NCBI RefSeq assembly: GCF_013167455.1
Contig: NZ_CP038328.1
Reading direction: 5' to 3' (one strand)
Source of the DNA: Escherichia coli O157:H7
Lineage (GTDB): Bacteria; Pseudomonadota; Gammaproteobacteria; Enterobacterales; Enterobacteriaceae
DNA: 64,000 nt
A program made the translations under genes and the position numbers. The first letter of the stretch is position 1, and every line of letters starts with the position of its first letter. The notes under the pieces were generated by a model that had not been told where the DNA came from, made no database searches, and saw only the letters and a list, made by a program, of their open reading frames with translations. Positions 8,942-19,618 of this stretch are shown here, piece by piece.

Positions 8942-9119
8942 TCCTTGCGGCCGGGCGTGGAAAGCGCTTTCTCACCTCCGGGGGAAATACCATAAATTAA
9001 GAGAAAAATTTGCAGTAGCCGTTTTAGAAAATCACCTAAATCGTTTAAAAGAGCGCCCTACCCATAGTGGTTGCTCATCGCCTTGTGTAACTTTTTCAGC
9101 AACGCGCGCCCTCGCCGGA

Positions 9120-10313
9120 CTAAAGCGCACCGGCCTTCTGGCGTGCTGTAACAAAGGTCAGTACGCCCGCGCAAAGGAGCAGCACACTACTCATGGCAAA
9201 CGTACTCTGCCAGCCAAGGCGGTCAAACACGATGCCTCCTGCCGTTGATCCAAGGGCGATTGAGAGCTGAATCACCGCGACCATGAGCCCGCCTCCGGCT
9301 TCGGCGTTGTCAGGCAACGTACGCGCAATCCATGTCCACCATCCGGTTGGCGCGGCGGTGGCCAGCATGCCCCAGAGTCCTAACAGCAGCGAGACCATCC
9401 AGACGTGATGCCCGGTAAGCATCAGACCGATGGCAATGACGGCCATCAGTCCGGGTATGGCCATCAGCGTGGGGTAGAATTTTCTGTTGAGAAATATCGA
9501 AACAACCAGCGTGCCAATAAAACCGGCCACGCCGATAATCAGCAAAATCAACGACAAGCCTAAGGAATTAACCCGTGTCACCGACTCCAGAAATGGGCGC
9601 ACATAGGTGAATAGCGCAAACTGCCCCATGAAAAACAGGCCACAAGCTATCATGCCGACCACAACCATGCGGCGGCTAAATAAGCGGAATACCGCGCCAC
9701 ATGACGTGTGGCTTTTATTCGCATCCATGCTGGGCAGACTAATGCACTGCCAGATAAAGGCGACAACCGCCATGGGCACCAAGCACAAGAAAGCGCCTCG
9801 CCATCCGACCGTAGCCCCCAGATAGCTTCCCAGCGGCGCGGCCACGACCGTCGCCAGCGCATTACCGGCGTTGAAAATCGCCAGCGCACGCGTGACCTGA
9901 TGCTGCGGCACCAGACGAATCGCCGTTGCCGCTGACATCGACCAGAATCCGCCAATGGCCACACCAATCATCGCACGACCGACCATATACATCAGATAAC
10001 TGGTAGCCAGCGCAATAATAAGCCCCGATACGGCCATCAGAACCGTCATCCCCAGCAGCAGGAACTTACGATTCATCTTTCCAGCTAGCGTTGAAAGCGT
10101 CAGGCTGGTCAGAACCGCCAGCGCACCGGAGATAGCAATCCCCCGCCCTGCCAGCCCCTCCGTCACGCCCAGGTCACGGGCAATCGGCGTGAGCAGGCTG
10201 ACGGGCATAAATTCAGAAGCAATCAGCACAAACACGCACAGGGTCATGGCAAAAATACCGCCCCAGTATGCGTGCTGATGATGAGGTGATGGTGTTTGGC
10301 TTAGTGTCGACAT
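9120..10313 (-). CDS. MFS transporter (DHA1-like efflux permease)
   Basis: 397 aa, about 12 predicted transmembrane helices, MFS-type composition. Confidence 0.7.
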   Translation of the reverse strand: MSTLSQTPSPHHQHAYWGGIFAMTLCVFVLIASEFMPVSLLTPIARDLGVTEGLAGRGIAISGALAVLTSLTLSTLAGKMNRKFLLLGMTVLMAVSGLIIALATSYLMYMVGRAMIGVAIGGFWSMSAATAIRLVPQHQVTRALAIFNAGNALATVVAAPLGSYLGATVGWRGAFLCLVPMAVVAFIWQCISLPSMDANKSHTSCGAVFRLFSRRMVVVGMIACGLFFMGQFALFTYVRPFLESVTRVNSLGLSLILLIIGVAGFIGTLVVSIFLNRKFYPTLMAIPGLMAVIAIGLMLTGHHVWMVSLLLGLWGMLATAAPTGWWTWIARTLPDNAEAGGGLMVAVIQLSIALGSTAGGIVFDRLGWQSTFAMSSVLLLCAGVLTFVTARQKAGAL

Positions 10314-10388
10314 AGTGAAATTTCACAAAGATCAGGATAAAAGCCACCGGCCATAGACCGGTGGCTTTGCATCAATTCAGGGGAGGTT

Positions 10389-11546
10389 TTATTTCAGTTT
10401 GGTCTGGAAAAATTGTTCGAACTTCGCGAAAGGTATTTTTCCGGCCACGTTATCGTACAGGTCCACGTGATTTGCCCCTGGTACCACCACCAACTCTTTG
10501 TCTTTACTGCCAACCGCCTTGTAAGCATCTTCAGCAAAATAGCGTGAATGTGCTTTCTCACCGGTCACAATCAGCGTCGGAATGGTGATTTCACTGGCGT
10601 AGCTCAACAGCGGCATATTCATAAATAACAGCGGCATCGTTGCCGTCCACGCCCCGGTAGAGTTAACGGAACGTTCGTGGAAGCCGCGCGGCATGCGATA
10701 GTAGTCAAAGAACTCTTTCAGTACCGGATGAGGATTTGCCGGCAGCGTTTCTGGCAGAATGCGCTCGCCCGCACTGACCTTGCCGTTGCTATCGACATTA
10801 ATATCATGACCACCGTGAGCGAACGTTCCGCTCTGCGCATCCTTCCAGCGCTGTTCATTCAAATATTGCAGAACAGCACGACGGTCGGCGGTAGAATAAC
10901 GGTCTTCGCCATCCCCCACACCATGGCCCATCGCCCGGCTCATGTCATACATCACGCTGGTAGCAACCGCTTTAACGCGGGTATCCATCGCCGCGTCGTT
11001 CAGCGCCATGCCGCCCCAGCCACAAATACCGAGCAGCCCGATACGGTTGCGATCTACCTCTTTTTGCAGCCCTAAGAAATCCACCGCCGCGCTGAAATCT
11101 TCAGTGTTGATATCCGGTGAGGCGACATTTCGCGGATAGCCGCCGCTTTCCCCGGTGTAAGAAGGATCGAACGCCAGGGTAACAAACCCTCGTTCCGCCA
11201 GCGTCTGCGCATACAAGCCGCTGGATTGCTCTTTCACCGCGCCAAATGGCCCACTGACCGCAATCGCCGCCAGCTTGCGATCGCCACGGTCTTTAGGCAG
11301 GTAAAGATCGCCCACTAAGGTGATGCCATATCGGTTCGGGAACGAGACTTTACGGTGATCGACTTTCTGGCTCTCGGCGAACGTTTTATCCCATTTATCG
11401 GTCATGGACACAGGGGCATTAGGATTGGTTGAATCAGCATAACTCATTGTCGTGACTCCACTTAATGATGCGAAAAGCAGCATGACCGGCATCGCGGTTT
11501 TTAGCGTTCGGGTGAAGGCTTTCATAAAAATCCCCATAAAAAACAA
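10389..11546 (-). CDS. Secreted alpha/beta-fold hydrolase (dienelactone hydrolase / S15 peptidase-like)
   Basis: Signal peptide (AMPVMLLFASLSGVTTMSYA); nucleophile elbow-like GICGWGG; 385 aa. Confidence 0.55.
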   Translation of the reverse strand: MFFMGIFMKAFTRTLKTAMPVMLLFASLSGVTTMSYADSTNPNAPVSMTDKWDKTFAESQKVDHRKVSFPNRYGITLVGDLYLPKDRGDRKLAAIAVSGPFGAVKEQSSGLYAQTLAERGFVTLAFDPSYTGESGGYPRNVASPDINTEDFSAAVDFLGLQKEVDRNRIGLLGICGWGGMALNDAAMDTRVKAVATSVMYDMSRAMGHGVGDGEDRYSTADRRAVLQYLNEQRWKDAQSGTFAHGGHDINVDSNGKVSAGERILPETLPANPHPVLKEFFDYYRMPRGFHERSVNSTGAWTATMPLLFMNMPLLSYASEITIPTLIVTGEKAHSRYFAEDAYKAVGSKDKELVVVPGANHVDLYDNVAGKIPFAKFEQFFQTKLK

Positions 11547-11692
11547 CAGAGAGATACAGGTTTCCGACGGACAACGCTGCGGTGCTTTACTTTGATGGGG
11601 TCATTATAGTGAGCAGAATTAGTGCTGATTAGGGGGCGATTAATGCTAAGATTAATACCATATTGTTATAAATTAATGCTGAGATTGCCGGC

Positions 11693-12595
11693 ATGAAGGG
11701 GAATGTTTCAATGGCAAAAAGGGAGAACTACAACGAGCTATACCTGTTTATGCAGGTGGTGCGGGAAGGCAGCTTTACCGCAGCGGCTAAGCGGCTGGGT
11801 CTTGCTCAGTCAGGAGTCAGCCGTTCTGTTCGCGAGCTTGAAGAAAGGCTGGGCGTCCAGCTGCTGGTGCGCACCACGCGTAAACTGTCGCTGACGCAAG
11901 CAGGCGAGCAGCTCTACCAGAAGACGGCATCTGGATTTGAAATGTTAGATCTTGGGCTTGCCACGCTGGCGCACTATCGAGAGACGCCCTCCGGCACGGT
12001 GCGTATCAATGCCAGCCAGCACGCGATTGATAAATGCCTGCTGCCAAAGCTGGCGGTATTTAAACAGCGATATCCTGATATCCAGCTTGAACTGATAAAT
12101 GAGAGCCGGTTCGTCGATATCATCGAGGAAAGATTCGATGCAGGTGTCCGCCTGGGGCCTGAAGTCAGCCAGGGCATGGTCGCGGTACGCATCACGCCCG
12201 ATATGGAGATGGCAATTGTGGGGACTCCGGAACATTTTCGTCGCTATGGTTTTCCGCAAACCCCGGCGGATTTAAAGGCGCATCCCTGTATCGCCTATCA
12301 GTTTGCCGACGGCAGCGTATACCAGTGGGAACTCAATCAGGATGATAAAAAAATCACTCATCAACCCGAAGGACAATGGGCCTTTTCCGACAGCTATATG
12401 GAAGCAGAAGCCGCCCGGCTGGGCCTCGGGTTGGCCTATGTTCCTGTTGAACTGGTCGCGGATGATTTAGAACACGGTAAGCTTATCAGAGTGTTGCAGC
12501 GTTACAGCCTGCGAATGGAGGGATTGTTTCTCTATTACCCTCATCGCAACGTCTCCCCCGCTCTGCGGATGGTCATTGATACATTGAAAATCTGA
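11693..12595 (+). CDS. LysR-family transcriptional regulator
   Basis: N-terminal HTH (FTAAAKRLGLAQSGVSRSVRELEERLGVQLLVRTTRKLSLTQAG) plus substrate-binding domain; divergent from hydrolase gene. Confidence 0.8.
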   Translation: MKGNVSMAKRENYNELYLFMQVVREGSFTAAAKRLGLAQSGVSRSVRELEERLGVQLLVRTTRKLSLTQAGEQLYQKTASGFEMLDLGLATLAHYRETPSGTVRINASQHAIDKCLLPKLAVFKQRYPDIQLELINESRFVDIIEERFDAGVRLGPEVSQGMVAVRITPDMEMAIVGTPEHFRRYGFPQTPADLKAHPCIAYQFADGSVYQWELNQDDKKITHQPEGQWAFSDSYMEAEAARLGLGLAYVPVELVADDLEHGKLIRVLQRYSLRMEGLFLYYPHRNVSPALRMVIDTLKI

Positions 12596-13297
12596 ACGTT
12601 AACAACGACCGACTCTTCACTGTGCAATATTGTGTCAGGTAGTCACTCTGCGTTCAATTCCAGGGGCCGCTTTGAGCGAGAAAGAGCGGACTTATCTGTA
12701 CAAGGGGACTATCCAGCAATGGAGATCATCCAAAAGAAAAAACCACCTGGCTCCCCTCGACAACCTTAATCCGGGCATTTAGCCTCAATCAACATTTTCA
12801 TATCTGTCAGGTTACTTCATTATGAAAACCGATCAATACCGTTGTTTTTGTTGCAACAGTAGAATACGCGTATTTATCCCTCCATTTCTATTAATAACGG
12901 CAATAAACTGTTCATTTCACTGATATTTAAAATATGCATCCTTTTCAAGCTGTTCAGCGGCGTAAGAAAACGTATTAAATATGAATTCGACGATTTAACC
13001 ATTTCTGTCTGATTGGTAATCATCTGTGATTAATGCTGGTCTATTGATTACTCCAGCATTAACCGCTTAGGGATGTATTCTTCCTGTTGATATACAGCCC
13101 TCGAAAAAGAGAGAAAATAAAACTGTGTCCAATATTACTCTACCACTCCAGACCGAAGCATCGGTAGAATTAGCAGAACGACTGGTACAATAGATTGGGA
13201 TAGCGTCATTTGTCAGGTATTCCATTGCCTGACAAATGACAATTTTGAGTCAATAGACGTGCTTCTTGATCATGTCTTAAAAATTATACCATGAGCC

Positions 13298-13576
13298 TTA
13301 TGAAGCATCATTTTTACTGACTGGTGTTAACTTTGCTATCATATAAACTCTGTTCTTAAAAAACGCGCCCAGAATTTTATATGATTTCCCTTGTTTTTCT
13401 GCCTGTAAAGAAATTTCTTTTTCAGTGCTGTTAATGGTTGAACCGACGGCAGTAATCGTTTTGGCGACGCTACTGAATGATAATAAAGACAGTGCAACCA
13501 CAACAATTAAAGAACAGATAGTATTCACGCTAATTTCCCTGACAATTGAGAGGATGAGTTTTATATATAAAGACAT
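13298..13576 (-). CDS. Small secreted DUF1471 (YhcN/BhsA-like) stress protein (start uncertain)
   Basis: Signal peptide then about 55-aa domain ending SYKILGAFFKNRVYMIAKL, typical of DUF1471; AT-rich. Confidence 0.45.
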   Translation of the reverse strand: MSLYIKLILSIVREISVNTICSLIVVVALSLLSFSSVAKTITAVGSTINSTEKEISLQAEKQGKSYKILGAFFKNRVYMIAKLTPVSKNDAS

Positions 13577-13742
13577 TAAACATGAGTCATGTTTACTTCC
13601 TGTGAAAAATAATCTTTCTGTAATTAAACCTTCATCTCCTTCGGGGTGAGCAATACATAATGTATCTTGCTATGAAAAACACAGGGATATATAAATATTC
13701 CTTCTGACCTATTTAATAAAACGTGAATGTAAAAGTTATTCT

Positions 13743-14480
13743 TCAGTTTGCAGATGCAGTGGGTCTGATGGTAATTTCGGTTGTATCAACGCTTTCGGGA
13801 GATTCAATAATATGCCTTACAGCACGGGCAATATCCGCGGGTTGAAGTGCAACAGAACGGTAGGCGTCCATTGCCTTCATGGTTTCCACATGGGTAATGG
13901 TTGAAGCCAGTTCACTTTCGACAACGCCAGGATTTACGCAGGTCACACGGATTTTCGAGCTTTCCTGCCGTAAGCCATCAGAAATAGCCCGTACTGCAAA
14001 TTTTGATGCACAATAGACTGCGCCTGTGGGCACAACAGAAAGGGCACCAATAGAACCAAGATTGATTATCTGACCGGAACCCTGTGCTTCCATCACCGGA
14101 AGTACAGCGCCAATTCCCCACAGTACACCTTTGATATTCACGTCAATAGTGAGCGCCCATTCATCTTGTTTTCCTGCTGCAAGCGGTGAAAGCGGCATAA
14201 CGCCCGCATTATTGATAAGAACATCAACTCGCCCCCAGCTATCCAGCGCTGCTTGCACGAAATCGGCCATGGACTGTCGGTCTGTGACATCCAACTCCCG
14301 CGCTTTAGCAATTCCTCCTGCGCGGCAGATTTCGGTTGCAATGGCTTCGATACGCTCAACTCTGCGTGCTCCCAGTAAAACCTTTGCACCTGTCATTCCA
14401 AGCTCTCTGGCAATACCTTCCCCAATACCACTTGATGCGCCGGTAATTAATATGACCTTATCCATTACGTTCTCCTTCAA
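13743..14480 (-). CDS. Short-chain dehydrogenase/reductase (SDR) oxidoreductase
   Basis: TGASSGIG Rossmann motif, NNAG motif, catalytic YxxxK (YCASK); 245 aa. Confidence 0.85.
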   Translation of the reverse strand: MKENVMDKVILITGASSGIGEGIARELGMTGAKVLLGARRVERIEAIATEICRAGGIAKARELDVTDRQSMADFVQAALDSWGRVDVLINNAGVMPLSPLAAGKQDEWALTIDVNIKGVLWGIGAVLPVMEAQGSGQIINLGSIGALSVVPTGAVYCASKFAVRAISDGLRQESSKIRVTCVNPGVVESELASTITHVETMKAMDAYRSVALQPADIARAVRHIIESPESVDTTEITIRPTASAN

Positions 14481-14563
14481 ATGTGTTCGGAGAGAGAATA
14501 GAACTTTATGATTGGTTCCAGTATCCTGCTTTCAATGTACTCAGTGGTTAGCGGCATTAAACA

Positions 14564-15463
14564 ATGAAAATCGATCTTAATCTTTTACCCATTTTTATCG
14601 CGGTAGCAGAAGAGAGTAATTTTAGTAAAGCCGCCGCACGGCTGGGCGTTACCCGTTCAGCGGTCAGTCAGGGAATAAGACGCCTTGAAGATGCATTCGG
14701 GACAATGCTTGTAATGCGGACCACGCGCTCAGTTAATTTGACAGAAGCGGGAGAACGGCTGCATAAATCGCTGTCATTACCTTTATCCGGTATTGAGGCA
14801 GCGTTCGAAGAGATGGTTTCTGACCATGTGCCACGCGGACTTCTCAGAATCGCGGTGACGTCAATAGCTGAAGAATTTCTTTCAGGTCCGCTAATCGCTT
14901 CGTTTGCAGCAGCCAATCCAGCCGTTACGCTTGATATTGTTGTCACGGATGAGGAATTCGATATCGTGGCCGCAGGTTACGATGCTGGCGTAAGGCTCGG
15001 AGAGGTCATTGAAAAAGACATGATTGCTGTGCCCCTTACCGGCAGGCAGCGTGAAATGGTCGTTGCCTCTCCCTCCTATCTCGCAGCCAACAGCACACCT
15101 GTTCATCCGCGTGAACTTGTGAATCATAAGTGTATCGGCTGGCGTCAGTCCCCGGAGGTTGCGCCTTATCGCTGGCCATTTGAAGAAAACGGGAGAGCTT
15201 TCGACCTTGCGATTGAACCGCAGATTACGACTAATGATCTGCGTCTGATGTTGAGGCTGGCTCTTGCCGGCGGAGGAATAACAATTGCCACTCAGGAAAC
15301 TTTCAGGCCGTATATTGAAAGCGGTAAGCTTGTATCTCTGCTTGATGACTTTCTTCCACAATTTCCGGGCTTCTATCTGTATTTCCCACAGCGTCGCAAT
15401 ATTGCACCAAAGCTCCGCGCTCTGATTGACCACGTTAAGGAATGGCGGCAGCAATTGGCTTAA
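14564..15463 (+). CDS. LysR-family transcriptional regulator (divergent from SDR gene)
   Basis: HTH (FSKAAARLGVTRSAVSQGIRRLEDAFGTMLVMRTTRSVNLTEAG); 299 aa; classic divergent LysR-target arrangement. Confidence 0.8.
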   Translation: MKIDLNLLPIFIAVAEESNFSKAAARLGVTRSAVSQGIRRLEDAFGTMLVMRTTRSVNLTEAGERLHKSLSLPLSGIEAAFEEMVSDHVPRGLLRIAVTSIAEEFLSGPLIASFAAANPAVTLDIVVTDEEFDIVAAGYDAGVRLGEVIEKDMIAVPLTGRQREMVVASPSYLAANSTPVHPRELVNHKCIGWRQSPEVAPYRWPFEENGRAFDLAIEPQITTNDLRLMLRLALAGGGITIATQETFRPYIESGKLVSLLDDFLPQFPGFYLYFPQRRNIAPKLRALIDHVKEWRQQLA

Positions 15464-15589
15464 ATGTCTGCACCTGCATTGCCTGATGTCAGAACAGTAT
15501 TTTGATTAATTGCCAGGGTTACAATGGCACAAATGCGGCACAGGAGGAAACGTGGTGTATTTAAATATGGGGTAACTACTTGATTTAAA

Positions 15590-15608
15590 TGGTGCGATAA
15601 TAGGAACC
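15590..15608 (-). repeat. Degenerate direct repeat of the tRNA-Thr 3' end (distal att of the P4-like island)
   Basis: TGGTGCGATAATAGGAACC matches TGGTGCCGATAATAGGAGTC at 28475 with one deletion and two mismatches. Confidence 0.45.
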
Positions 15609-16138: not shown

Positions 16139-17095
16139 GTGACTAGTTATTCAAACTTTTCCAATCAAATAAAAGAAACCATCAATAATAAATTCGATCA
16201 TGAAATTCATGATTGGGACATTATAAAAAACTCAATCACAACTTTAATAAATAAAAATATCCATGGTGCAGGTAGAAATATCGTTGATTTTATAGATTTA
16301 GGTAACTGGGATTTTATTTCAAACTTTTCCTTTGATGACTCTACAAGAAGACTTGAATTAGAGTGGCACCCCAATGATAAATTCCATATATATATTGAGT
16401 CCGTTGTGTTTGTCGAGTTTAATGACACTATATATGCTTTCTTAAAGGGATACTATCACAATCAGTTATCTCTAAATAGAATATATAATACAAAATGCTC
16501 TTCATGTTCATTTGAAAACTCAGGTTCTTATATGGTAGACGTTTATAGAACGGTTAAAAGAGTAAATGAGACAATCCAGACCCCAAATATAAATTGCTAT
16601 ACTACATGTATTTTAACAAGGCCCGCAAATGGTCATGTTACATCTACAGGCTTCTCACGAAACCTCATGGATGCGATAAATATTTCATTAGCAGAGCACA
16701 AAATAGCCTCTTTACATAATGAAGTCATGAGTATTGAGGAATATGATCGTGATTCTTTACAAGAGAAAGGAAATACTGCCAGGAGATATTTAGAATATAT
16801 TCTCATGCTTGTTAATATTCGTATAATGCATTTAAACAACGTTCAATACCAAGAGCAAATGCTAGGTAGTTTAGTTTCTGTTATTGAGGCTCTGGACTAT
16901 GAACCATTAATGAAAAATGATGTTGAAATTACAAAGGACATCCTTAATGCTTGCAGCCACCACGGGGGGGTTAGAATTGAAAAGAAAGATGTAATTTTTT
17001 CTTTGGAAGTTATTGAAAACTTAATTAAAGCCATAAAGAAAACCGACATAAATAAATTACAACTCGATGGGATGTTTAAATCAATTCAAAAATAA
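16139..17095 (+). CDS. Hypothetical protein, very AT-rich orphan cargo gene inside the satellite island
   Basis: 318-aa ORF with GTG start, no recognisable motif, Asn/Ile/Lys-rich; lies between the distal att repeat and the primase 3' end. Confidence 0.45.
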   Translation: MTSYSNFSNQIKETINNKFDHEIHDWDIIKNSITTLINKNIHGAGRNIVDFIDLGNWDFISNFSFDDSTRRLELEWHPNDKFHIYIESVVFVEFNDTIYAFLKGYYHNQLSLNRIYNTKCSSCSFENSGSYMVDVYRTVKRVNETIQTPNINCYTTCILTRPANGHVTSTGFSRNLMDAINISLAEHKIASLHNEVMSIEEYDRDSLQEKGNTARRYLEYILMLVNIRIMHLNNVQYQEQMLGSLVSVIEALDYEPLMKNDVEITKDILNACSHHGGVRIEKKDVIFSLEVIENLIKAIKKTDINKLQLDGMFKSIQK

Positions 17096-17227: not shown

Positions 17228-19618
17228 TTATTTCGCTGCAAACTCATCGCATTTTGGCAACCAGTCAGCATTGCTTTCCTCTCTTAGGGCCAGATTAGTC
17301 TGCATTCCTTGATTGGTCCGTCGTTTCTCATACTGCAGCCCATATTCCTTGAGCATTAACGGTAGCCCCTTGCCAAACATGGTCAGACTGAGCGTATTTT
17401 TATAGCCGTTAGCCTCCATGTAGACCAGATAGGCATGGTAGAGGTAAGTTCGAGGCTGACGTGGAACAATATTAGCGTTCCCCATAAACATGCCCGTGGT
17501 GTCAGGTAGGACCTCAAGGTAGCCGCAAAAATCAAAAGCTGAATCAGCATCACGTTTGATGGTGAGCGCTTCATCGGAGTTCTGCTGTGACTGAAGCAAT
17601 GTCCTGGCACTCATTGGGTCGCTGAAACGCTGCATAAGCTGGCGAACAATCACCGCTAGCTCACTGGCAATTTTCTCTTTGAGCTGGGTATCGCGTTCCT
17701 CCGGGGCTATCTGGTCGGGGAAATGCAGGATCACCCTTCGGCGTGAAACTCCACCACTACGATCAGTGAAGCGCATCGGATTATTGTTCACAGCCAGGAT
17801 GACCGCCGGGATGTGGGTTGAATAGGCGTTCTGATATTTGGGATCAACGGATACCGCATCGCCGCCAGTGATGGCTTTTAGTCCGGCCCCGTCACCGCTC
17901 CACTTTTCCTGGTCGGGAAGTCGAATCAGTGAAAAACCTATTAACGCAGCTCGTTCTCTTGGCGACTCAAGCATTTCAATGGTTGCCGAGGTCGCGTTAT
18001 CTTCACCCGCCAGCATGGTTGCTATTTCAGCAAGAATACTCTTTCCACTTCCGCCAGGGCCAGTGACCTCCAGAAACAGCTGCCAGTCATAACGGTTAGC
18101 CAGCACCATAAACAATGCAGCCAGAATAATGTCCCGTTTTTCAGGATTAAAACCTGCGGCACGATCCAGCCAGCGCCAGAATGCCGGGGCATGGGTTTCC
18201 AGTGACTCACCGTCAACGGGCTGCGTGTAATCCACCTCGCACAGCGTACGTAACCAGTGCTTCTTATCGTGCGGGCTGAACAATCCTGTCCGGGTATCGA
18301 GCACACCGTTGCGAAATCCGATAAGTTGCCGCGCCGGATTCTGCTGTTGCGGAACGATCAGTTTGAGGGTTTCCACGAGAGACGCAATTTTCGCGGATGA
18401 AAAAGGTGCGTCGAGGCGCTGAAACAGCGCAGCGACATCACGGGCAAAATCGGCGTAATAGATAACTTTCCAGGCCCCCGCCTCATAGCGTGAAAGGAGC
18501 TGCCCGTTCGGGTCTACTGCCAGTGAATTTTTATAGTGATCCACTACCCTCTGCGCTTTTTCGCTGACGCTCAGCGCGGTAAATTCAGCTTCGCTCATTG
18601 TGTCGAAGGGGCTGGCAACAGCTGGTTTTATTACTTCATGAATTGCATGCCGGGTGGCTTCTTCGCCGTTTTGCGTGAATGCATCGTTCCAGTCACCAAA
18701 CACAGGCGGGAGCGCCATTGTGCAATTGCAGGCCCCGGTAACAGCTGCGCCCCTTGTTTGCCCCGCACCGTTGAGATCGCGGTCAGCAGCAATAATTATC
18801 TGGTGCGTTGGGTACTCACTGCAGGCAATGCTCGCCAGGGAAAGGAAATTGACGGACGAAAAGGCCACCATGACAGCATCGCCAGTCAGATAGTTGATAG
18901 TAAGTGCGGTGGCATATCCTTCCGCTATCCAGAGCCGTTTGGCTGCTTTGGCAGTACCTTCAACCAGGTAAAAGGCATTCTTAACCTGACCGCCTTTAAG
19001 GAAGCATTTGCCCCCATTAGCGTTGATTAACTGCAGATTTACCAGCTCTCCATCTGCATACAATGGAACGACAAGATCTCCCGCGCGAAATGCCACACCA
19101 CCGACTTTATGCATAGCGGTTAATTCCCGGCAAGGCAGTGCAGGAAACCCTTTACTCGTCAGATAGGCATTGCCAGTGGTCTGGCGGGACTTATCAAACA
19201 AACGGGCAGCCAGCACTGCTGCAGCTTTTCTCCCGTCCTCTTTTTCAGGAGAACCAGATTCAAGCATTCCCTGAGATACTGGCAGCAGGTTTCCGATAAT
19301 GCCGTTTATTCTGTCTGCCGCTTCACTAATGCCTACATCCAGTACTTTACTTACAAGCGCCAGGCCATCACCTGCCCCGCACTGGTTACAGAACCACGTT
19401 CCCCGCCCTTCCTGGTCATCAAATCGAAAGCGGTCTTTCCCGGCACAGACCGGGCAGGGCTGGTGCCGATTTTTCAGTACATTTACGCCCAGCGCAGGTA
19501 AAATTCTTGACCAGTGACCCCGAGCTGCTTTCTCAGCCTGGCTAACTTTCATTCCTGACATTGTGCGGCCCTCCTTAGTGCAGCGCTGGTTTGTTGAGGT
19601 GACGGGAACAAAGTTCAT
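17228..19618 (-). CDS. P4 alpha-like primase/helicase (N-terminal start uncertain)
   Basis: Zinc-binding [14 protein letters not shown]...CNQCG motif, primase/Toprim region and P-loop ([11 protein letters not shown]) in a roughly 780-aa protein. Confidence 0.85.

Follow-up and report, generated by a model that had tools for sequence, protein, structure and literature searches.

O island 9 of Escherichia coli O157:H7 as two probable LysR-controlled modules, and the deletion that removed it from K-12

O island 9 (OI-9) of Escherichia coli O157:H7, described from strain EDL933 by Liu et al. (2019, Virulence; PMC6768210) and covered in a later review (PMC8565820), is a segment of 6132-6133 bp that carries the genes z0342-z0348 (PMC6768210, PMC8565820). 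In the published list these are two LysR regulators (z0342 and z0346), an oxidoreductase (z0343), two hypothetical genes (z0344 and z0345), a hydrolase (z0347), and a transporter of the major facilitator superfamily (MFS; z0348) (PMC6768210). Here we analyze a window of 64,000 nucleotides (the whole stretch of DNA studied; contig NZ_CP038328.1 of assembly GCF_013167455.1), in which the accessory block following paoD is this already described feature: a segment of ~6.13 kb lies between yagQ/paoD and an island on the thrW side, is missing in K-12, and has an identical gene list. Positions 9000-15600 are 100% identical to O157:H7 strains in a megablast search of 5426 complete E. coli genomes, the set behind the E. 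coli counts given below, and the RefSeq annotation of the identical genomes holds the same six genes together with a ykgR pseudogene fragment in the gap. An earlier note on this DNA, made from the letters alone, missed both the published identity and the virulence regulator OvrB (PMC6768210); its six genes, with their coordinates and strands, are borne out by the open reading frame (ORF) listing, by Pfam and NCBIfam families, and by RefSeq annotation. We conclude that OI-9 very probably consists of two unrelated LysR-controlled modules that lie next to each other in the interval from paoD to the thrW integration hotspot, and that its absence from K-12 is the result of deletion. The features of the locus are as follows (aa, amino acids; nt, nucleotides; SDR, short-chain dehydrogenase/reductase).

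8996..15124, no strand: extent of OI-9, from blastn junctions against K-12 strain EMG2; its ends are ambiguous by the 5-nt CATAA
9120..10313, minus strand: z0348, MFS transporter with 12 transmembrane segments, DHA1/NepI-like (MFS_1, E 2.7e-37)
10389..11525 (longest ORF to 11546), minus strand: z0347, alpha/beta hydrolase of the PA2218/YcjY family, predicted exported
11711..12595 (longest ORF from 11693), plus strand: z0346, which is OvrB, here LysR1 (HTH_1 and LysR_substrate)
12826..12894, plus strand: ykgR', a pseudogene fragment (RefSeq pseudogene)
13016..13098, minus strand: ykgL-like remnant disrupted by a stop codon (nt alignment, tblastn)
13298..13576, minus strand: z0344, small predicted exported protein, 92-aa ORF (weak PF07338/BhsA scores)
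13743..14465 (ORF to 14480), minus strand: z0343, SDR (adh_short, SDR motifs)
14564..15463, plus strand: z0342, here LysR2, which is intact yagP (HTH_1 and LysR_substrate; 299 aa)
15590..15605, no strand: remnant of the 3' end of thrW (att site); an intact tRNA-Thr lies at this point in strain A_5

To the left the block is flanked by paoC and paoD (the latter with the XdhC Pfam domain), and to the right by an AT-rich ORF of 318 aa and then a P4-like primase. Pfam assigns MFS_1, alpha/beta-hydrolase families, HTH_1 plus LysR_substrate (twice), and adh_short to the block proteins, leaving the 92-aa ORF as the one without a match. The genes have a GC content of 50-57%, against 39.7% in the gap and 49.5% for the whole window; the GC profile, proposed by the earlier note as a check on foreign origin, thus does not look foreign in the genes. 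All six genes are under purifying selection, with ratios of nonsynonymous to synonymous divergence (dN/dS) of 0.04-0.20 in comparisons with another genus or with a divergent Escherichia lineage; the same ratio from close E. coli pairs is uninformative because too few changes separate them. No integrase, transposase or insertion sequence (IS) element was found within 8996-15124, and no direct repeats beyond chance flank the block or module 1 (defined below), so that a mobility gene, flanking repeats and atypical GC, the marks of a mobile island, are lacking in this interval. The att remnant (15590-15605) is part of the neighboring satellite island.

The evidence for deletion comes from K-12 itself. 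In strain EMG2 a gene annotated as 'LysR substrate-binding domain-containing protein, missing N-terminus' lies 50 bp after paoD; this is yagP, and it corresponds to the last 112 codons of z0342 (its 3' 339 nt, window 15125-15463) with 98% aa identity. K-12 matches window 15125-15605 at 96.9% identity, and its paoD-side homology ends at 8995; the deletion is ~6.13 kb long, running from 54 bp past paoD to the middle of z0342, with a CATAA microhomology at the junction. Because the yagP fragment is retained and the junction carries this microhomology, the K-12 state derives from a block-bearing ancestor, and for the difference between K-12 and O157 the yagP remnant refutes the reading of the block as an acquired island. 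The K-12 junction allele, counted with a 121-nt probe across the junction at a coverage of at least 80%, is present in 2685 of the 5426 genomes and is the commonest state of the locus. K-12 and about half of the complete E. coli genomes have therefore lost the block by one ancient 6.13-kb deletion. The earlier note had the block occupying the position of yagP, which turns the relation around: the last gene of the block (14564-15463) is the intact yagP, and the K-12 gene of that name is what the deletion left behind.

Other states of the locus were also found. Strain A_5 carries a second deletion (13185-15232), which leaves a shorter yagP fragment directly beside an intact tRNA-Thr and proBA, while in strain Survcare321 all sequence to the right of 13058 has given way to an AbiE toxin-antitoxin pair together with a large reverse transcriptase and the remnant of an integrase. 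In comparison with Survcare321, synonymous divergence (dS) is 0.096 for paoC and 0.060 for paoD, and 0.085, 0.027 and 0.062 for the MFS, hydrolase and LysR1 genes, respectively. The dS of the block (0.03-0.085) is thus about that of its pao flanks (0.06-0.10), which argues against a recent acquisition in the O157 lineage. The proposal of the earlier note that the genes are acquired cassettes, in the sense of a recent O157 gain, fails on this point and on the synteny of module 2 beside thrW in a divergent Escherichia lineage and in E. fergusonii, described below.

The block resolves into module 1 (9103-12680), which contains OvrB, the Z0347 hydrolase and the Z0348 transporter, and module 2 (12826-15605), which contains ykgR', z0344, z0343 and z0342. 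Module 1 is present in 912 of the complete E. coli genomes and the part unique to module 2 in 387-437, with the two modules together in 429; ~310 genomes in these presence counts belong to the O157/O55:H7 clone, and ~480 genomes carry module 1 without module 2. The earlier suggestion of two independent regulator-target pairs is upheld by this independent variation, by the separate occurrence of the modules in other genera and on plasmids, and by the pseudogene debris between them. The condition under which that note would have given up its account, namely the presence of the block in all close relatives, does not hold across genomes, where the block is variable.

Outside E. coli the two modules have different distributions. 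Relatives of the hydrolase number at least 595 in a scan of one genome per species, and among the matches listed seven exceed 85% aa identity, including Kluyvera genomosp. 1, Enterobacter, 'Escherichia sp. ESNIH1', Hafnia, and a metagenome-assembled genome of Enterobacteriaceae; no named sister species of Escherichia is among the top hydrolase matches listed, with one representative genome per species. The copy of module 1 in Kluyvera genomosp. 1 strain L2 (locus L006, 8766-12342) matches at 91.8% nucleotide identity over exactly 9103-12680, with dS of 0.25-0.35, and stands in an unrelated chromosomal context of a flavin mononucleotide (FMN) monooxygenase and binding proteins of ATP-binding cassette transporters. 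Core genes of Kluyvera and E. coli are expected to be far more divergent than this. The module 1 cassette was thus probably exchanged between the Kluyvera and E. coli lineages, to judge from the sequences, and of the two modules only this one has the look of a cassette that moved horizontally long ago. The LysR-hydrolase-MFS trio recurs at ~20 proteobacterial loci, with regulator identity down to 36-52%. The trio of Klebsiella pneumoniae (85%, 89% and 75% aa identity, plus an extra aldo/keto reductase) lies near mppA-mpaA-ycjG; in the corresponding mppA/mpaA/ycjG region of E. coli K-12 there is presumably a distant paralogue, ycjY, with the LysR neighbor pgrR. An SDR-LysR pair neighboring the Klebsiella locus was considered as a copy of module 2 and rejected at 27% and 30% aa identity.

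Module 2, by contrast with the unrelated contexts of module 1, is found at the same place in other Escherichia. An E. fergusonii contig is colinear with 12826-15605 at 96% identity, in the order proB-proA-LysR-SDR-small protein-ykgR, and a divergent Escherichia lineage is colinear over the same interval at 89%, beside proBA/thrW, with dS of 0.18-0.35. In both, the homology begins inside ykgR. Past its intact ykgR, the divergent lineage has a LysR gene, three aldo/keto reductases, an alcohol dehydrogenase, another LysR gene, and rclCBA-rclR; module 2 lies ~7 kb from rclABC there. A Klebsiella IncFIB plasmid holds the small protein-SDR-LysR trio (56%, 90% and 87% aa identity) between IS5 and IS903B.

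Between the modules lies the AT-rich spacer of 0.7 kb (12596-13297). The earlier note saw it rightly as AT-rich (39.7% GC); it is not empty, as it holds pseudogene debris. The ykgR' fragment comprises the last 22 codons of the gene, with 82% aa identity to K-12 YkgR and a stop before it, and forms the left boundary of the segment that is syntenic with other Escherichia, where ykgR is intact at this spot (in E. fergusonii and in the divergent lineage). The ykgL-like remnant is 74% identical at the nucleotide level to the K-12 ykgL region, and 54-58% at the aa level by tblastn. The published z0345 appears to be spurious, the spacer holding these two remnants instead. They are diverged duplicates (90% nt identity for ykgR, 74% for ykgL) of the true ykgR-ykgL segment, which in K-12 lies, as ykgR-ykgMO-ykgL, ~15 kb to the left, before ecp. 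This suggests that the interval ykgMO-ecp-yagU-pao-module 1 is framed by two diverged copies of one ancestral ykgR-ykgL segment, an arrangement that may be due either to insertion of sequence in E. coli or to its loss elsewhere.

Within module 1, OvrB is transcribed divergently from the two-gene set z0347-z0348. Its identification as Z0346 follows from the gene order z0345-z0346-z0347 (hydrolase), and its domains are clear (HTH_1, E 1.2e-23; LysR_substrate, E 2e-35). Its start is most likely 11711 and not 11693, as supported by the conserved MAKRENYN, and its dN/dS is 0.06-0.13. Both regulators of the block score below the NCBIfam LysR equivalog cut-offs (YafC, AaeR, GcvA and others), the best being YafC with 193 and 162 bits against 470. 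The transporter Z0348 (dN/dS 0.12-0.19) is most similar in NCBIfam to NepI and is not its equivalog (282 bits against a cut-off of 584). For it we prefer the start at 10313, since the Kluyvera copy retains the 22 N-terminal codons that this start adds to the RefSeq version (start at 10247); these codons, as we assume from the NepI sequence, match the first transmembrane helix of that protein.

The hydrolase Z0347 is similar over its full length to the PA2218/YcjY family, the closest solved structures being PA2218 (PDB 2HDW, E 1.9e-123, residues 8-349) and YcjY (PDB 5XB6, E 2.5e-44); a structure is therefore at hand for a homologue of ~70% identity, itself uncharacterized. All 81 aligned family sequences have C142 (RefSeq numbering) and H327, and C142 aligns with the nucleophile serine of GLSMGG in serine-type relatives (8B4U, 9PJB), from which we infer that the family has a cysteine nucleophile, as do the dienelactone hydrolases. 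Its dN/dS is 0.04, and identities of 55-67% extend across Proteobacteria, Bacteroidota, Firmicutes, gut Melainabacteria, and a Methanobacterium. The dienelactone hydrolase family PF01738 itself gives 21.2 bits against a cut-off of 21, and no aligned stretch is significant by itself; Z0347 is not a UilS quorum-quenching lactonase (NF047920; 67.5 bits against a cut-off of 400). Neither the hydrolase nor the small protein nor the 318-aa ORF nearby was matched to a defense system by PADLOC.

That the hydrolase is secreted, as had been claimed, is supported by a predicted signal peptide of 30 aa (MKAFTRTLKTAMPVMLLFASLSGVTTMSYA, with D following the cleavage point) that is conserved in enterobacterial homologues. 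As this leader is conserved, the start at 11525 is better than that of RefSeq (11447), which drops the signal peptide. A strongly hydrophobic stretch precedes the conserved domain in 62 of 80 homologues across phyla, a count that is a hydrophobicity proxy and not the output of a signal-peptide predictor; by eye, the leaders are of Sec, Tat (twin-arginine, in alphaproteobacteria) and lipoprotein types. Z0347 is thus predicted to be an exported, periplasmic enzyme. In other phyla its homologues are recurrently neighbored by a secreted cupin, a hexapeptide acetyltransferase, a cyclophilin-like PF18050 protein, an aldo/keto reductase, a flavodoxin/FMN reductase, and an SDR. Such neighborhoods would be of a redox or xenobiotic type, and they are the sole basis on which the label 'detoxification' is used here.

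In module 2, Z0342 (YagP) is transcribed divergently from the genes for the Z0343 SDR and the Z0344 small protein. Z0342 has both LysR domains (HTH_1, E 8.5e-22; LysR_substrate, E 5.4e-35) and a dN/dS of 0.06-0.11. Z0343 has the motifs of a classical NADP(H)-dependent SDR (TGASSGIG at residue 8, GARR at 32, NNAG at 85, and YCASK at 151) and a dN/dS of 0.06-0.14; its closest structure is 3TFO (E 6.8e-122), with clavulanic acid dehydrogenase, YMR226C and YdfG-like entries next in rank, and it is not an equivalog of YdfG (3-hydroxy acid dehydrogenase), at 134.6 bits against 411. IS1203, of the IS3 family, interrupts the SDR/LysR region of module 2 in a few O157:H7 strains (F8798, F6667), and on account of these insertions decay of the block is continuing.

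The small protein had been called DUF1471-like, of which the weak similarity and the Sec signal peptide stand and the family assignment does not: Z0344 scores 13.0-14.3 bits (E 0.04-0.11) against the 27-bit cut-off of PF07338 (DUF1471), its Klebsiella plasmid homologue 13.9 bits, and the NCBIfam BhsA model gives 18 bits (E 0.003) against 90. In size and export signal it is like the DUF1471/BhsA proteins, having a mature domain of ~55 aa behind a Sec signal peptide. By inspection, the signal peptides read ...LSLLSFSSVA-KTITAV... in Z0344 and ...FLSSFSTMA-QIVTAV... in the plasmid homologue (hyphens mark the cleavage points), and the likely start is a GTG at 13528, which would give a protein of 76 aa with the signal peptide ...SLLSFSSVA-KT. 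The 86 homologues found are almost all from Escherichia/Shigella, 76-aa forms are common among them, and none of the 86 has a precomputed Pfam domain. A second, paralogous copy of z0344 was considered as the cause of the many database contigs and rejected, as megablast finds one locus per genome. Given the signal peptide, the conserved plasmid homologue, and a dN/dS of 0.20 (against the divergent Escherichia lineage), Z0344 is probably a real gene.

Both divergent promoter regions are strongly conserved. Between ovrB and z0347, positions 11602-11673 are nearly invariant across nine enterobacterial loci that are otherwise ~75-80% identical, and include a candidate T-N11-A-type site, TAATACCATATTGTTA (11653-11668). 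A 15-mer, ATTAATGCTAAGATT, stands at 11639-11653 and again at 11672-11686, 33 nt apart, in the form ATTAATGCT(A/G)AGATT; conservation in other genera is confined to the first copy. The 98-bp region between z0342 and z0343 is nearly invariant in E. coli, E. fergusonii, the divergent Escherichia lineage, and the Klebsiella plasmid copy, and holds a perfect dyad, GAAC-N10-GTTC, at 14501-14518. We regard 11653-11668 and 14501-14518 as candidate LysR boxes.

From this arrangement we propose that OvrB and YagP would each bind the conserved site in their own short divergent promoter and, when a small-molecule ligand appears, switch on the neighboring genes. In the periplasm, Z0347 would then hydrolyze an ester, a lactone or a thioester, Z0348 would carry the substrate or product over the inner membrane, and Z0343 would reduce a carbonyl compound, so that the overall role may be detoxification or scavenging of small molecules and not a full catabolic pathway.

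Several points weigh against this account of the history and function of the block. The absence of module 1 from other Escherichia rests on one genome per species, among the matches listed, and is not rigorous. The E. fergusonii copy of module 2 may be a recombinational import because its dS is low (0.06); the synteny in the divergent lineage is the stronger evidence for an old residence of module 2 at this site. The block may also have re-spread later by homologous recombination, which is compatible with the deletion argument, and the published authors propose that OI-9 was gained twice (PMC6768210). On the functional side, literature searches on yagP, PA2218 and YcjY found no paper with a function in its title or abstract, the PA2218 (2HDW) and YcjY (5XB6) structures are both of uncharacterized proteins, and the five proteins other than OvrB have no known substrate, ligand or enzymatic activity. 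Transport by the MFS protein may run in either direction, and the control of neighboring genes by OvrB and YagP is one that we propose.

The alternative that survives best, which we nonetheless hold to be rather unlikely, sees the block as a virulence-regulation island whose selected function in O157 is OvrB-dependent activation of the locus of enterocyte effacement (LEE), the other genes being redundant passengers. It draws on the published experiments, which show OvrB of LEE-positive E. coli to bind the LEE1 promoter, to activate ler, and to favor both adherence and the colonization of mice; deletion of ovrB lowers adherence, LEE expression and mouse colonization, and deletion of any of the other six OI-9 genes has no such effect (PMC6768210). 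However, the LysR-hydrolase-MFS trio is found in many bacteria without LEE, with dN/dS of 0.04-0.19 for all three genes, and the remaining genes of the block are intact and under purifying selection in O157. Since the trio is conserved in bacteria without LEE, control of LEE is better seen as a lineage-specific addition to an older function. A further and distinctly improbable extension is that an OvrB-type LysR regulator, a Z0347-type hydrolase and a NepI-like MFS transporter make up an unrecognized, widespread system that senses and processes one common small molecule, the ligand of which tunes LEE in enterohaemorrhagic E. coli; the candidate compound would be a gut or plant ester or lactone, with that molecule or its hydrolysis product as the OvrB ligand, and the ligand of Z0347 might be a signal acting on OvrB.

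It is less probable again that both modules form one pathway kept by selection, in which the hydrolase would act first, opening an ester or lactone, and its product would be oxidized or reduced by the SDR, with the MFS transporter and small periplasmic protein as accessories. SDRs 44-50% identical to Z0343 do lie within ~3.5 kb of hydrolase homologues at three of 80 distant loci (L042, L059 and L060), aldo/keto and other reductases often neighbor these homologues, and the modules do occur together in 429 genomes; but module 1 lacks module 2 in the ~480 E. coli genomes noted above, has no Z0343-type SDR beside it in Kluyvera, Klebsiella, Enterobacter or Hafnia, and is separated from module 2 by pseudogene debris, each module having its own regulator, while module 2 stands alone on plasmids and in other Escherichia. 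Least likely of all is that OI-9 is a horizontally acquired island, or two cassettes, inserted at yagP in the O157 lineage (or twice, in two pathogenic clades), for although the block is missing in K-12 and carries the O island label (PMC6768210), has relatives of both modules on plasmids and in other genera, shows sharp homology boundaries of module 1 against the Kluyvera copy, and adjoins the thrW integration hotspot, the 3' third of its last gene kept in K-12 at a microhomology junction marks the empty state as a deletion product, its dS matches that of the pao flanks, it contains no integrase, IS element or flanking repeats, its gene GC is not foreign-looking, and module 2 occupies the same position in the divergent Escherichia lineage.

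We thus retain the reading of OI-9 as two unrelated resident modules that K-12 has lost. Given the corrected polarity, the link of OI-9 with pathogenic clades would reflect retention in some lineages and not two gains. To the known island our analysis adds this correction of polarity, the resolution into two modules, corrected gene starts, and a wide family of cysteine hydrolases.

At the right-hand junction, homology with island-free strains stops at 15590-15605, where the satellite island starts. The sequence there, TGGTGCGATAATAGGA, matches the 3' end of the thrW tRNA-Thr gene, of which island-free strains have an intact copy at this point. The 64-kb window was found to hold no tRNA gene, and the islands integrated at the thrW remnant therefore extend past it. 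The 318-aa ORF (16139-17095, plus strand, ~30% GC), located after the att remnant and ahead of the P4-like primase (17228-19618), has no Pfam, NCBIfam or PADLOC match and is possibly a cargo or defense gene of the satellite island. In Survcare321 a different, defense-type island occupies the same hotspot, with AbiEi/AbiEii, a reverse transcriptase of 1069 aa, and an integrase remnant beside thrW (locus L003, 13030-19410).

Compared with known systems, the parts of OI-9 have recognizable relatives. K-12 yagP is a pseudogene, whereas the window holds the intact 299-aa gene with its helix-turn-helix domain and a divergent SDR partner. PA2218 and YcjY share with Z0347 a GICG(W/A)G sequence, the cysteine of which stands at the nucleophile position, and the C-terminal motif (A/G)(N/S)H(V/M)DLYD with its histidine; Z0347 differs from both in being predicted exported and paired with an MFS transporter, and YcjY is a distant paralogue, with a 306-residue chain that aligns from residue 4 and has no comparable leader. 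The dienelactone hydrolases (Cys-His-Asp, PF01738) share the alpha/beta fold and the cysteine nucleophile, at a borderline Pfam score, whereas Z0347 has a large insertion between nucleophile and histidine and is predicted to be exported. Z0348 belongs near NepI and the SotB/Cmx group of DHA1 MFS exporters; it resembles NepI over its full length, yet it scores far below the equivalog cut-off and is best described as a member of the MFS superfamily. Module 2 recalls the RclR-RclABC system and the BhsA/YdgH (DUF1471) proteins, which are small periplasmic stress proteins, in having a regulator divergent from a reductase and a small exported protein (~55-60 mature residues); its regulator, however, is of the LysR and not the AraC type, its reductase is an SDR and not a flavoprotein, and Z0344 falls below the PF07338 cut-off.

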